Below, piece after piece: positions 6,382 through 22,538 of a stretch of DNA of 53,891 bases. How positions within the stretch are numbered: the stretch's first letter is position 1; each line of letters begins with the position of its first letter. This DNA is from Candidatus Omnitrophota bacterium (GTDB lineage: Bacteria > Omnitrophota > Gorgyraeia > Aquiviventales > Aquiviventaceae), in contig JACPTX010000018.1 of the NCBI GenBank assembly GCA_016192545.1, positions 1 to 53,891 of the forward strand, in the 5' to 3' direction. The notes beneath the pieces were generated by a model. The model saw only the letters and a program-made list of their open reading frames with translations, was not told the DNA's origin and made no database searches. The translations under genes and the position numbers were made by a program.

Positions 6382-7007
6382 TGGCCGCGGCGACGGCCCC
6401 CCAGACCCCGACAGCCGTCGGGGGGGTCGGGGCTGCGGCGGGACCCAGGCCGAGGCTGTCGGAGCGCTATCAGCGGGAGTTGGTTCCGGCCCTGATGGCG
6501 CAGTTCAAGCACACCAACCGGCTGGCGGTCCCCCGCCTGACCAAGATCGTGCTCAATATCGGCTGCGGCGAGGCCGCGCACGACGCCAAGATCCTCGAGG
6601 AGGTCCAGCGGAATCTGGCGACGATCAGCGGGCAGCGGCCGATCGTCACGCGGGCCAAGAAGGCCGTCTCGAACTTCAAGATCCAGGAAGGCGATCCGGT
6701 CGGCTGCAAGGTGACCCTGCGGCGCCGGCGGATGTACGAATTCCTGGACCGCCTCGTGAGCATTGCGCTGCCGCGCATCCGCGACTTCCGGGGGCTGTCG
6801 GCCAAGTCGTTTGATGCGAGCGGCAACTACAGCTTCGGCATCCGGGAGCTCTCGATGTTCCCCGAGCTGCATCCGGATGACCTGCACTACCCGATGGGGA
6901 TGGACGTGGTGATTGCGACGACGGCTCCGAGTCCCCAGGAAGCCCGGGCGCTCCTGGAAGGGTTCAAGATGCCCTTTGAGAAGGCGGCGAAAACCGAACA
7001 GTCGTGA
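6381..7007 (+). CDS. rplE: 50S ribosomal protein L5 with N-terminal extension
   Basis: ...[37 protein letters not shown]... ATG 6381 overlaps the rplX TGA. The extension contains the PTAVG palindrome. Confidence 0.92.
6406..6423. repeat. 18-bp PTAVG palindrome in the rplE N-terminal extension
   Basis: CCCCGACAGCCGTCGGGG, read as PTAVG. Confidence 0.9.
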
Positions 7008-7604: not shown

Positions 7605-7607
7605 GTG

Positions 7608-8207
7608 ATGTCACGCATTGGTCGGATTCCGGTCGCCATCCCTGACAAGGTGAACGTGGTCCAGGAAGGGGGGACCCTGTCCGTCCAGGGACCGTCGGGG
7701 ACGCTGTCGCTCGCGATCCCGTCGGACCTCTCGGTCTCGATCCAGGCCCCCGCCGAGGGCGGCCCAGGCGGCAGGCACGTGGTCGTCCAACGGGCCAGCG
7801 ACCTGAAGCCGGTCAAGGCGCTCCACGGGTTGTACCGCGCGATGATCGCCAACATGGTGCGCGGGGTGACGGAAGGCTTCATCAAGGAGCTCGAGATTCT
7901 CGGCGTCGGCTACCGGGCGCAGGTGCAGGGCCAGTCGCTGGCGTTGCACGTCGGCTTCTCGCACCCGGTCATGGTGCCGATCCCGCAGGGCATCACCGTG
8001 CAAACGCCCAAGCCCACGAGCGTCGTCGTGAAGGGCATGGACAAGCAGCTCGTCGGGCAGGTGGCGGCCAACATCCGGCGCGTGGCGCCCCCTGAGCCGT
8101 ACAAGGGCAAGGGCATCAAGTACGCGGGCGAGGTGATCCGCCGCAAGGCGGGCAAGGCCGCGACGGGAGCCAAGGGTGGTGGTGCCGGCGGCGGAGGGGC
8201 GGGATGA
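7608..8207 (+). CDS. rplF: 50S ribosomal protein L6 with Gly-rich tail
   Basis: [17 protein letters not shown]...[14 protein letters not shown]. Confidence 0.95.
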
Positions 8208-8265
8208 CCCATTCGACGCGCGTTCGCTTGCTCAGGGTCATGGTGAGCAGGGTCGAACCATGAGC
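8205..8265 (+). repeat. Stop-to-start intergenic cassette (TGACCCATTCG...CTTGCTCAGGGTCATGGTGAGC...GTCGAACCATGAGC), copy 1
   Basis: Its first 3 nt are the rplF stop and its ATG (8260) is the rplR start. A second copy lies at 21581-21653. Confidence 0.85.
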
Positions 8266-8628
8266 CAGACCAGTCAGAGAACGCTCGGCCGGTTGAACCG
8301 CCACCGGCGCATCCGCAAGCGGCTCATGGGCCTGCCGGACCGGCCCCGCCTGTCGGTGTTCCGCAGCCACAAGCATCTGTACGCCCAGCTCATCAACGAC
8401 TACGAGAACCGGACGCTGTTCAGCTGCTCCACCCAGGTCGAGGCCCTGCGCGCGCAGTCCACGCGGGGCGGGACGATCGCGGCGGCGGATCAGTTGGGCC
8501 GCGTGGTCGCGCAGGAAGCGATCAAGCGCGGGATCCAGCAGGTGGTCTTCGACCGCGGCGGCTACCAGTATCATGGGCGCGTCAAGGCGCTGGCTGAAGC
8601 GGCCCGGCAGGGCGGGTTGCAATTTTGA
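8260..8628 (+). CDS. rplR: 50S ribosomal protein L18
   Basis: [42 protein letters not shown]. Confidence 0.94.
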
Positions 8629-20435: not shown

Positions 20436-20449
20436 GCCAGGGCACCGCG

Positions 20450-21583
20450 ATGGCAGGCCGCCGGCTGTTGCTCATGCATGTCACGACGAGCTCCGGCCAC
20501 CACCATGCCAGCCGGGCGATCGCCCAGGCCCTCCAGCGGCTCGACCCTGCCTGCCAGATCATCAACGTGGACGCGTTCGACTACACGAGCCGCTTCGTCC
20601 GCTGGGCGATCCAGCGTTCCTACCACTCGCTGATCCGCCATTACCCCAACGTCTGGGAATACCTCTACGATAACCCGGAGATCCACCGGCACACGCAGCG
20701 CATCCGCAATCTCCTCCATCGCTACCACACCCGCAAGCTCCGCCGGCTCCTCGAGACGGTCCAGCCCCACGCCATCGCCTGCACGCAGGCCTTTCCCTGC
20801 GGGATGGTGGCGGACTTCAAGCTTCACCGCGGGCTCCACATCCCGCTCGTCGGGATCCTCACCGACTACGCCCCCCACCTGTACTGGCTCCACGATACGA
20901 TTGACGCCTATGTGGTGCCGGCCCATGAGCTCAAGGAGCGGTTCCTGTCCTACGGGGTGCCGGAGGACCGGCTCCGCGTGTACGGGATTCCGGTGGAGCC
21001 GCGCTTCCTGGATCCGGTCGACCGCCGGGCGGTCTACGCGGAGTTCGGGCTGGAGCCGGACCAGCCCGTCGTGCTCATCATGGGCGGGGGCAGCGGCTTC
21101 GGGCCGATGCGCGAAACGATGCAACACCTGGATGCGCTAGAGGCGCCCTGTCAGCTCGTCGTGTTGGCGGGGACCAACCGCGCGCTCCTGGACTGGTTCT
21201 CCCGCCAGCGCTTCCGGCATCCCGTCCACGCCTTCGGCTATGTGGAGGCCGTGCCGCAGCTGATGGAGATCGCCAGCCTCATCATCACCAAGCCCGGCGG
21301 CCTGACGACCGCCGAGGCGCTGGCCAAGCACCTGCCGATGGTGATCCTCAGTCCCATCCCCGGCCAGGAGATGTGCAACGCGCGCTACCTACTGGACCAG
21401 GGCGCGGCGATCCAGTTGGATGGGCCCCAGTCCGTCGGCCGCCACGTGGGTCGGCTGCTGCGGGATCCTCAGGCGCTGCAGGCCGTCCGGGAGCGCGCCG
21501 CGGCCATCGCCCACCCGGACTCGGCGGCGCAGACCGCGCAGCTGTTGTTGGAGCTGGCGGCCCGGCATCGGAACGGTCCATGA
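20450..21583 (+). CDS. Diacylglycerol glycosyltransferase-like protein (MGDG-synthase / GT28 family)
   Basis: LLLMHVTTSSGHHHASRAIAQAL...ITKPGGLTTAEALAKHLPMV. ATG 20450 lies within track ORF 19493..21583. Confidence 0.7.
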   Translation: MAGRRLLLMHVTTSSGHHHASRAIAQALQRLDPACQIINVDAFDYTSRFVRWAIQRSYHSLIRHYPNVWEYLYDNPEIHRHTQRIRNLLHRYHTRKLRRLLETVQPHAIACTQAFPCGMVADFKLHRGLHIPLVGILTDYAPHLYWLHDTIDAYVVPAHELKERFLSYGVPEDRLRVYGIPVEPRFLDPVDRRAVYAEFGLEPDQPVVLIMGGGSGFGPMRETMQHLDALEAPCQLVVLAGTNRALLDWFSRQRFRHPVHAFGYVEAVPQLMEIASLIITKPGGLTTAEALAKHLPMVILSPIPGQEMCNARYLLDQGAAIQLDGPQSVGRHVGRLLRDPQALQAVRERAAAIAHPDSAAQTAQLLLELAARHRNGP

Positions 21584-21653
21584 CCCATTCGCCGCGGCCT
21601 TCGGCCTTGCTCAGGGTCATGGTGAGCGAGCGAGAGCGAGTCGAACCATGAGC
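21581..21653 (+). repeat. Stop-to-start intergenic cassette, copy 2
   Basis: TGACCCATTCG..CTTGCTCAGGGTCATGGTGAGC..GTCGAACCATGAGC. Its TGA is the stop of the upstream glycosyltransferase and its ATG (21648) is the acyltransferase start. Confidence 0.85.
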
Positions 21654-22538
21654 AGCCCGGCATGGGCGTATGCCGCCATCCAGGGGCTGACGGCCGTCCT
21701 GCCCCGGTCCTCCTGCGAATGGATCGCCGAGCGGCTGGCGGATGCGCAGTGCCGGCGGGCCGCGCATGACCGCGAGGCCGTCCGCGCCAACCTCTCGCTT
21801 CTCCTCAACCGGCGTCTGCCGGCGGATGCGCCGGAGATTCGCGAGGTGTTCCGCCAGTTCGCGCAGTATCTGCTCGAATTTCTGAGCGCGCACCGCGCGC
21901 GCAGCTCGAGCAGGGTCGAGGAGACCGCGGCCGTGACGGCCGGGCTGCGGCCCGGGCAGGGCGCCGTCATTCTGAGCGCGCACCTGGGCAACTGGGAGCT
22001 TGGGGCGGTCGCGCTGCATCGGGCGGGATGCCGGATGAGCGTGGTGGCGCTGCCGCACGGGAACCCGCGCGTCAATGAGATCTTTGAGGGCCAGCGCCGC
22101 CGCTGCGGGGTCGAGGTGATTCCGCTGGCCGCGCGGGGCTCGACGGCGCGGTGTCTGCAGCGGCTGCGCGAGGGCTGGCTGCTCGGCATCCTGGGCGACC
22201 GGGAATTCGGCCGCAACGGCATCCCCGTGACGTTCCTGGACCGGGTGTGCCTCCTGCCGAAGGGGCCGGCGCTGTTGAGCCTCCGCAGCGGGGCGCCGGC
22301 CGTGCCGGTGTTCGTGATGCGCGAAGGCCCGTGGCGCTTGCGGTTCCATGTCGAGCCGCCCATCCCGCCCTCGTTGGCCCGCGGCAAAGCGGATCCGGTG
22401 CAGTGCCTGACGCAGCTCTATGCCCAGAGCATCGAGCGCATGGTCCGCCGGTTCCCGACCCAGTGGGTGATGTTCCAGCCGTTCTCCTCGATCACGGCCC
22501 CGACGGCCGTCGGGGCGGCCGTGTCGGAAGCTCGCTAA
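21648..22538 (+). CDS. Lysophospholipid / lipid A biosynthesis (LpxL-HtrB family) acyltransferase
   Basis: GAVILSAHLGNWELGA...GDREFGRNGIPVTFL, the family-typical H(x)4-like region. Confidence 0.65.
   Translation: MSSPAWAYAAIQGLTAVLPRSSCEWIAERLADAQCRRAAHDREAVRANLSLLLNRRLPADAPEIREVFRQFAQYLLEFLSAHRARSSSRVEETAAVTAGLRPGQGAVILSAHLGNWELGAVALHRAGCRMSVVALPHGNPRVNEIFEGQRRRCGVEVIPLAARGSTARCLQRLREGWLLGILGDREFGRNGIPVTFLDRVCLLPKGPALLSLRSGAPAVPVFVMREGPWRLRFHVEPPIPPSLARGKADPVQCLTQLYAQSIERMVRRFPTQWVMFQPFSSITAPTAVGAAVSEAR
22498..22515. repeat. 18-bp perfect palindrome CCCCGACGGCCGTCGGGG (PTAVG) near the acyltransferase C-terminus
   Basis: Direct reading: APTAVGAAV. Confidence 0.9.

Follow-up and report, generated by a model that had tools for sequence, protein, structure and literature searches.

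A probable mobile hairpin element at stop/start overlaps in an Omnitrophota genome, with a loop that matches its own ends

MIRU, a class of mycobacterial intercistronic repeats, appear to be mobile elements with start codons as their insertion sites (Supply et al. 1997, summarised in the 2025 review PMC12548453). According to that summary, an internal small open reading frame (ORF) of MIRU is coupled to the downstream gene by a -4 (ATGA-type) overlap, and insertion barely disturbs expression. IS608 reads its cleavage and target sites through a short internal guide that base-pairs with them, and a changed guide resets the target; the intermediate of IS200/IS605 elements is a single-stranded circle whose joint is the right end plus the left end (PMC3201880, PMC5934647). 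Ssn GIY-YIG single-strand nucleases carry flanking NTS/SRM hairpin repeats, an architecture of repeat, gene and repeat that their authors note is like that of insertion sequences, and cleavage did not require a particular loop sequence (Chenal et al. 2025, PMC11893778). Here we describe a short hairpin cassette that lies at two gene junctions in 53,891 nucleotides of DNA from a Candidatus Omnitrophota bacterium (GenBank assembly GCA_016192545.1, contig JACPTX010000018.1; this whole stretch is the window below). MIRU is its closest known analogue in behaviour, and the guide-directed single-strand transposition of IS608 is the closest precedent in mechanism.

The cassette is probably a non-autonomous mobile hairpin element that inserts at NTGA sites under the guidance of its loop, with selection confining the TGA type to stop/start overlaps. 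The element is 45-120 nt long and has a superfamily scaffold, TTCGAC ... CTCA-loop-TGAG ... GTCGAA. Members of the TGA subfamily start with CCC and end with CCA. TGA remains the stop of the upstream gene, while an ATG for the downstream gene is re-formed from the element's final A and the TG of the right-hand TGA. The window is contig C5 of a draft genome (G000; 1.35 Mb, 67% GC, 86% complete). Other G-numbers denote further genomes, C-numbers contigs of G000, and L-numbers loci in relatives or other sequences. The parts of the two copies in the window are:

8204..8207, + strand: left ATGA, the original stop/start overlap and target, whose ATG now opens a mini-ORF (the same junction is a bare ATGA in L002, L017 and L018)
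8205-8207, + strand: TGA stop of rplF, which is the left flanking TGA of copy 1
8208-8260, + strand: element copy 1, CCC-A-TTCGAC ... GTCGAA-CCA, with its right TGA at 8261-8263; a member, by sequence, of a family of 27-32 copies
8212..8217, + strand: 5' arm of the outer stem, TTCGAC, which pairs with 8252-8257 (DNA and RNA folds, consensus structure)
8218..8230, + strand: variable spacer/hairpin 1, GCGCGTTCGCTTG, whose length and sequence vary between copies (DNA fold)
8231..8247, + strand: conserved hairpin CTCA-GGGTCATGG-TGAG, whose loop (8235-8243) is complementary to CCA-TGA-CCC (core conservation, covariation)
8252..8257, + strand: 3' arm of the outer stem, GTCGAA (DNA fold, consensus structure)
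8260-8262, + strand: ATG of rplR, made of the element's last base A and the TG of the right TGA
21584-21648, + strand: element copy 2, CCC-A-TTCGCC ... GTCGAA-CCA, with its right TGA at 21649-21651; a family member (the site is an empty ATGA in L166 and L171)
21594-21609, + strand: first spacer of copy 2
21610-21626, + strand: hairpin of copy 2, CTCA-GGGTCATGG-TGAG, with the loop at 21614-21622
21628-21639, + strand: second spacer of copy 2, followed by GTCGAA at 21640-21645

An initial annotation of the window had proposed a repeated cassette at these two junctions, running from the stop of one gene to the start of the next. The sequence bears out the positions (TGA at 8205-8207 in copy 1 and at 21581-21583 in copy 2), and the three blocks of 11, 22 and 14 nt described as shared are exact in both copies. 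The 22-nt block matches twice in the window versus not at all in 100 shuffles. The blocks had been thought to be separated by variable GC hairpins. This is right for the first spacer, a spacer/hairpin in the DNA fold, but not for the second, which is AGG in copy 1 and GAGCGAGAGCGA in copy 2 and is a hairpin in neither.

The two copies belong to a family in the source genome, no member of which lies at random relative to ORF ends. We counted occurrences of the 18-nt core CTCAGGGTCATGGTGAGC with one mismatch allowed and found 27 copies, 20 of them with the exact core; with loop variants there are about 32. Copies are 57-127 nt long. Nearly all begin (N)TGA-CCC(N)TTCGAC, 26 of the 27 core copies end GTCGAACCATGA, and TGA direct repeats flank every core copy. 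Every copy has the same direction as the flanking genes (32 versus 0). Because long ORFs arise often by chance at 67% GC, we tested frames by the periodicity of codon-position GC, over the 60 codons after the terminal ATG. That ATG is in the downstream coding frame in 25 of the 27 core copies (GC at third codon positions, GC3, of 0.80-0.95), the exceptions being the first unit of a tandem pair and one copy on C64. The upstream side fits a coding frame in 24 of 27, and the left TGA is usually the upstream stop; at a few start-only sites (C24:25101, C11 and C41) the upstream gene ends earlier. Three pairs of copies are 100% identical, each at unlinked loci. The one tandem pair, on C19, has the joint CCA-TGA-CCC.

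Some copies are composite. Five, at C6:10120, C19:51563, C21:11452, C47:4758 and C62:5885, measure 112-122 nt from TGA to TGA and hold a related hairpin of about 51 nt (TCCCTCGAC...GTCGAACCA, loop GGGATGG) in the opposite orientation, nested in the variable spacer. C30:2685 is another nested member.

The loop of the element matches its own two ends and the triplet that flanks them. The 9-nt loop GGGTCATGG is the exact complement of the right end, TGA and the left end (CCA-TGA-CCC). The inverted repeat that had been picked out between ATGACCC and GGGTCAT is indeed complementary; it is part of this loop-to-termini pairing, which points to a role in propagation. The following variants, listed by loop, left sequence and right sequence, were found:

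Loop GGATCATGG: left TGATCC, right CCATGA; at least 11 copies
Loop GGATCGTGG: left CGATCC, right CCACGA; 14 copies (G009, G017, G015, G005, G018), both ends readable in 9, with 5 distinct sequences
Loop GGGTCGTGG: left CGACCC, right CCACGA; 1 copy
Loop GGGCCATGG: left TGGCCC, right CCATGG; 1 copy
Loop GCATCATGG: left TGATGC, right CCATGA; 1 copy
Loop GTATCATGG: left TGATAC, right CCATGA; 1 copy
Loop GGGTCATAG: left TGACCC, right CTATGA; 1 copy

A one-base insertion in the loop (GGGTTCATGG) is also compensated, by ATGAACCC at the left end. We quantified the covariation in 20 distinct haplotypes that were chosen for equal left and right triplets only, not for loop fit. Changes on both sides were found in 4 of 7 left-loop pairs and 3 of 6 loop-right pairs; the covariation score was reached by 0 of 500 shuffles, and it collapsed when the register was slid. 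Six other loops occur on the same scaffold in the source genome, and each is the complement of the right end, a flanking repeat of 3-6 nt and the left end (joints GGG-CGA-TCC, GGA-TGG(C)-CC, GGAC-GGCG-GCC, GGA-CTCGG-CAC, GG(G)-TCGAGC-CC and GTG-CTGAGC-CC). The rule was exact in 47 of 73 scaffold matches, a count that includes both strands because the element is nearly palindromic, versus 6% with permuted loops. Since the pairing persists without any stop or start (in the CGA and TGG variants and with the other loops), it serves the element and not translation. The varying length of the flanking repeat argues against a transposase with a fixed stagger. Together, the match of the loop to the element's own ends and to TGA suggests that the loop sets the landing site.

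Sister subfamilies with other loops are found in other settings. At C35:3465, C31:12029 and C54:34742 (CGA, CTCGG and TCGAGC loops), both flanks look coding on one strand and the net inserts are 81, 51 and 51 nt, all multiples of three; these inserts are probably translated in frame, like the Rickettsia palindromic elements. The CGA-type subfamily with loop GGATCGTGG (L145-L158) lies mostly in longer composite repeat arrays and not at gene junctions.

The occupied sites look like stop/start overlaps that were there before the element. We examined 89 cleanly parsed copies from the source genome, relatives and other phyla, and the flanking triplet was TGA in 81. The base before the left triplet was A in 65, G in 11, T in 9 and C in 4; it is unpaired with the loop. 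The right end of TGA-type copies is CCATGA, with rare CTATGA or GCATGA variants. With a variable base ahead of the left TGA and a nearly constant right end, the A of the rebuilt ATG comes from the element, whose last base it is. The order A > G > T > C mirrors start-codon usage and is consistent with ATGA, GTGA and TTGA overlaps as the occupied sites. We found no target motif extending past (A/G)TGA, and the upstream sequence shows only a weak trend towards G-rich, Shine-Dalgarno-like bases. The idea that the unit carries stop, hairpin and start as one package is thus partly upheld: it is a mobile repeated unit, and the register holds throughout the genome and in other phyla, but the stop and start are not cargo, the upstream TGA being the host's own stop kept as one of the two flanking TGAs.

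TGA-type copies are confined to gene boundaries because they contain a stop codon. By a rough count, the source genome offers about 199 ATGA/GTGA overlaps and about 188 stop-only RTGA sites; about 24 of the occupied sites are overlaps, 3-4 are start-only and 1-2 are stop-only. Stop-only sites may be avoided because the rebuilt ATG would start a spurious ORF into the ribosome-binding site of the next gene.

Related genomes have empty sites at both junctions of the window. We compared the rplF-rplR junction, as the initial annotation had proposed, and found the bare ATGA in L002, L017 and L018, whose L18 N-termini are like that of the window; L002 is the closest relative by L18 (69% identity). 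Four relatives have TAATG at this place. In others the junction is filled: by another subfamily's copy of the element in G002, by an unrelated element about 200 bp long in G018 and G010, and by a third kind in G015. The insert in G015 (L014; CACCTCACCTGTG ... CACAGGTGGTAGTG, about 130 bp) lies just after the L6 TGA (locus 1368-1370) and before the L18 start (locus 1501). At the second junction, between the MGDG-synthase-like gene and the acyltransferase, the ATGA is bare in L166 and L171 and apparently also in L169 and L174. The bare ATGA in relatives indicates that the element inserted into pre-existing ATGA overlaps. This type of junction is colonised repeatedly.

The family is widespread and patchy. 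Copy numbers among relatives are 27, 22, 7, 6, 5, 5, 3, 3, 2 and so on down to 0. In a scan across phyla with one genome per species, full copies were found in Omnitrophota, Elusimicrobia, Planctomycetes, Deltaproteobacteria, Binatia and Nitrospirae, and also in AT-rich members of the candidate phyla radiation (Saccharibacteria, Levy-, Nealson-, Giovannoni-, Nomura- and Terrybacteria), where the GC-rich core is unchanged. The shortest form is 49 nt, both TGAs included. In other phyla the downstream ORF is at least 60 aa long in 38 of 46 copies, with examples of 1066, 217 and 124 aa in genomes of 39-42% GC. About 25 of 80 matches in the genome collection, such as those in Streptomyces and Gluconobacter, consisted of the 18-mer with none of the flanking blocks, and we discarded them as chance. 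We found no match to the element among viral contigs or in collections of phages and plasmids.

A second, unrelated element shows the same register. It has perfect terminal inverted repeats (TIRs; TCCCACCACCTG...CAGGTGGTGGGA), is 78-152 bp long and occurs in about 22 copies each in G010 and G018 (L185-L204), with one copy in the source genome (C62:26408-26514). Its flanks were TGA/TGA (or TCA/TCA on the other strand) in 20 of 21 copies examined, with ATGA on the left in 16, GTGA in 3 and TTGA in 1, and the stop/start register fits the gene frames. The register is therefore a general outcome of duplicating TGA and ending in A. An autonomous copy of the TIR element is present in G003 (L255:1274-1615, about 340 bp; ATGA, then TCCCCCCACCTG ... 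CAGGTGGGGGGA, then TGA) and has an ORF of 113 aa for a GIY-YIG protein that runs from the host ATG to the rebuilt ATGA.

We propose the following steps for the hairpin element. The loop GGGTCATGG would pair with CCA-TGA-CCC, the sequence at the joint of a circularised or tandem element (CCATGACCC). This pairing, most likely in single-stranded DNA, would recognise the termini and select the target triplet, as the guides of IS608 do. TGA-type insertions would survive only at gene boundaries, since they carry a stop. Copies at start codons would be nearly neutral, with the displaced Shine-Dalgarno sequence and the original ATG driving a short relay ORF. The enzyme would act in trans, and our first candidate for it is a small single-strand nuclease of the Ssn-like GIY-YIG type, with a Y1 HUH transposase as the alternative.

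The only small GIY-YIG gene in the source genome is next to sequences related to the element. It is at C37:3016-3284, encodes an UPF0213-like protein of 88 aa, and matches the Pfam family GIY-YIG and the structure 1zg2 in the PDB (E = 3.5e-12). It is bracketed on both sides by half-scaffold repeats, and 27 nt of these (GGTGAGCGAGCGAAGCGAGTCGAACCA) are nearly identical to the right half of the family; the repeats at C37 are half copies only, at this locus plus close homologues. Homologues that are 78-88% identical, on metagenome contigs, share the upstream hairpin module. We consider the link between this gene and the family circumstantial. The whole cassette spans about 490 bp (C37:2870-3364), with the UPF0213-type gene between direct hairpin repeats. 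In L267 and L268 it follows the apparent 3' end of a tRNA gene, and in four homologues (L265-L268) a related short motif (GAGCCCCGTCGCCCC-like) is found again downstream, as would be expected had a tRNA end been duplicated.

Y1 genes (PF01797) are present in 24 of 31 relatives, with or without the element. Those at L137-L144 have no element ends and are not flanked by the element, and we rejected Y1 as the partner. No GIY-YIG motif lies within 3 kb of any core in the loci examined. A search for CCNTTCGAC-N{150,450}-GTCGAACCATGA in 401 Omnitrophota genomes returned only two adjacent short copies and one chance match, and a metagenome scan for elements of 247-307 nt found none.

Compared with MIRU, the element is alike in lying between co-oriented genes, in their direction and at the downstream start codon. 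The likeness is one of behaviour, and the host belongs to another phylum. The element differs in that only about half of the copies have an unbroken mini-ORF, in that tandem VNTR (variable number of tandem repeats) arrays are rare (one pair), and in that the family spans many phyla and has intragenic sister subfamilies; the summary of MIRU in PMC12548453 gives no counterpart of a guide-like loop.

With IS200/IS605 elements and with repetitive extragenic palindromes and their RAYT transposases (REP/RAYT; PMC3333891, PMC8266576), the element shares a hairpin-based build without long TIRs and oriented insertion next to a specific short sequence; its own structure is a conserved hairpin plus a 6-bp outer stem. 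Its loop covaries with the termini and the flanking triplet, in keeping with an internal guide of the IS200/IS605 type, and the position of this guide in a loop is atypical. IS608 has two hairpins, each with a tetranucleotide of this kind at its foot, whereas here one loop would serve both ends and the pairing is fully Watson-Crick over 9 nt. Unlike IS200/IS605, the family has no Y1 gene in the source genome, and the Y1 genes of relatives are not flanked by the element. We rejected an assignment to REP, since there is no GTAG or CGTC head; on their 5' side the stems have CCC(N)TTCGAC.

The C37 locus resembles the Ssn systems in having a small single-domain GIY-YIG gene between hairpin repeats, here half copies of a scaffold that is dispersed in the genome. 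The NTS/SRM consensus (CGTCATTCCC...GGGAATC) is unrelated, however, and by direct reading the element has no ATTCCC/GGGAAT palindrome; Ssn/NTS elements were not reported to lie at stop/start overlaps (PMC11893778). Rickettsia palindromic elements and intragenic MITEs (transposable elements of the miniature inverted-repeat kind; PMC10969869) resemble the sister subfamilies inside genes, with in-frame inserts of 51 or 81 nt, whereas the TGA subfamily carries a stop and is hence limited to gene boundaries. A full-text search of the literature for the core sequences and for start- or stop-targeting repeats gave only MIRU as an analogue and did not find the family itself, and a 2024 review of MITEs makes no mention of start- or stop-targeted insertion. 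The element thus appears to be a kind of small hairpin mobile element whose new feature would be a loop matching its own joint and target, of which the literature searched held no description.

Several results weigh against mobility guided by the loop. The flanks fit a target-site duplication no better than they fit an element that has a TGA of its own at the end and inserts 3' of a TGA. Copies occupy start codons more often than the available sites would predict, an excess that we can explain by selection only and not by the mechanism. Matches to the Y1 HUH transposase number 0 in the source genome, which is 86% complete, and Y1 genes in relatives do not track the copy number of the element. 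The GIY-YIG link is to one locus and its close homologues, and the modules flanking that gene break the loop rule. There was no autonomous copy of the family in 401 Omnitrophota genomes, one metagenome size window and the loci at hand. We found no presence/absence polymorphism within one population, and the empty rplF/rplR allele of this species is not in the metagenome contigs. RNA and DNA folding energies are unremarkable versus shuffles. Finally, the scaffold stems are invariant in the consensus fold and, because they never vary, the fold adds no covariation support.

It is possible, though we hold it with much less confidence than mobility under loop guidance, that the family is a self-guided single-strand DNA element of an undescribed kind, comprising a hairpin of 45-75 nt, a loop guide and a Ssn-type GIY-YIG nuclease of about 90 residues acting in trans, with the TGA lineage adapted to stop/start overlaps. 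If so, a mutation in the loop would re-programme the target, and the natural variants would use TGA, CGA, TGG, GGCG, CTCGG and TCGAGC.

We think it improbable that the cassette is instead a host-selected translational device, in which the loop in the mRNA pairs alternately with AUGACCC or CCAUGA and gates re-initiation while a mini-ORF couples the two genes. Both window copies have such a mini-ORF:

8204..8263, + strand: relay mini-ORF of copy 1, 60 nt, 19 codons, frame 0; it overlaps the L6 stop with its ATG and the L18 ATG with its TGA
21580..21651, + strand: relay mini-ORF of copy 2 (MTHSPRPSALLRVMVSERERVEP*), 72 nt, 23 codons, frame 0

The GGAGG upstream of 8204 is the Shine-Dalgarno sequence that formerly served the downstream gene. 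In frame 0, as in both window copies, the mini-ORF ends at the TGA that overlaps the rebuilt ATG; in frame 1 it runs into the downstream gene, and in frame 2 it ends at a conserved GG-TGA-GC, 13-30 nt before the ATG of the gene. Frames 0, 1 and 2 are found in 15, 5 and 7 of the 27 copies in the source genome and in 19, 15 and 12 of 46 copies elsewhere. The modest excess of frame 0 (34 of 73 versus 24 expected) speaks for a regulatory device, as do the strict orientation, the kept start-codon register, the enrichment of start codons beyond site availability, a Shine-Dalgarno-like purine tract (GGAG, GAG or AGG) 7-8 nt before the downstream ATG, and a loop that can sequester the AUG (TCATGG and CCATGA are complementary). 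However, about half of the copies break the mini-ORF, and we rejected it as a defining feature for being in frame in only about half. The covariation persists in CGA, TGG and six other specificities without a stop or start, several of them inside coding regions; a bare ATGA suffices in relatives at the same junctions; the flanking genes are unrelated housekeeping genes; and the unrelated TIR element has the same register. Nor does the RNA stand out. The initial annotation had called for a structure prediction, and this gave the conserved hairpin and the 6-bp outer stem, but with energies within the range of shuffles (z = -0.2 to -1.7). A known RNA family was ruled out by the lack of an Rfam match at E up to 10, and with no such match and no unusual folding energy the suggested role in mRNA processing finds no support. 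Translational coupling, the other role suggested at the outset, is plausible and could run through the relay mini-ORF.

An ordinary MITE, moved by a conventional transposase with a fixed 3-bp TGA duplication, is less probable still. In such a case selection would make the register, and the complementarity of the loop would be a by-product of the palindrome. The TGA direct repeats at every copy and the TTCGAC/GTCGAA subterminal inverted repeats fit a MITE, and the TIR family used as a control behaves in just this way. But the loop and both flanking triplets change together in several independent variants, the flanking repeat ranges over 3-6 nt within the superfamily and is in every case the middle of the loop complement, and the orientation is 32 to 0, whereas symmetric cut-and-paste could go both ways. 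Even the autonomous copy of the TIR family encodes a GIY-YIG nuclease and not a DDE transposase. We rejected the class of classical TIR MITEs for the element, as it has only the 6-nt subterminal inverted repeat and a flanking repeat that follows the loop.

That the copies are immobile and are old intergenic sequence spread among operon junctions by gene conversion or recombination is very unlikely: they are short and similar and include one tandem pair, but their flanks share only NTGA, the same 18-nt core occurs across many phyla (including genomes of about 40% GC), relatives hold patchily from 0 to 27 copies, and close relatives have empty sites.

The four genes that flank the two copies are each confirmed by a Pfam match (Ribosomal_L6, Ribosomal_L18p, MGDG_synth/GT28 and Lip_A_acyltrans):

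7605..8207, + strand: rplF (ribosomal protein L6), ORF; Pfam Ribosomal_L6, E = 1e-34; codon-position GC is coding up to the TGA
8260..8628, + strand: rplR (L18); Pfam Ribosomal_L18p, E = 2e-41, from residue 6; GC3 = 0.95; aligns with relatives
20444..21583, + strand: MGDG-synthase-like glycosyltransferase, ORF with an approximate start and its stop at 21581-21583; Pfam MGDG_synth and Glyco_tran_28_C
21648..22538, + strand: lipid A biosynthesis-type acyltransferase, from the rebuilt ATG at 21648-21650; Pfam Lip_A_acyltrans, E = 5e-36, from residue 5; GC3 = 0.87

The first triplet of the cassette had been read as the upstream stop, and at both junctions it is, ending rplF and the MGDG-synthase-like gene. 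The downstream N-termini, which had been judged authentic, do look so: both proteins align to Pfam profiles from their first residues, and the L18 N-terminus is like that of relatives in which the L18 ATG overlaps the L6 stop. The L6 protein has a glycine-rich C-terminal tail (window 8150-8204, 17 residues) beyond residues 1-180, the part aligned to relatives by BLAST. By ORF coordinates only, the ribosomal operon in the window also has an apparently unoccupied GTGA overlap at 7004-7007 (one ORF ending at 7007, the next starting at 7004) and an apparently unoccupied TTGA overlap at 8625-8628, where L18 stops and the next ORF begins; either could be a target, and neither carries the element.

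The family explains recurring short GC-rich insertions at gene starts in uncultured bacteria, and for annotation it also explains "hypothetical" peptides like PFD...LAQGHGE or ...VMVSE...VEP, both read from copies here. Several unrelated selfish elements have independently come to use the common ATGA stop/start overlap as a safe harbour, and the copies offer a natural series of relay mini-ORFs in three frames for the study of termination and re-initiation. The three-way covariation is natural evidence that a hairpin loop can specify an insertion target. If the small GIY-YIG nuclease is the partner, the family would represent a very compact programmable system for recognition of single-stranded DNA, with uses such as those proposed for Ssn and IS608.

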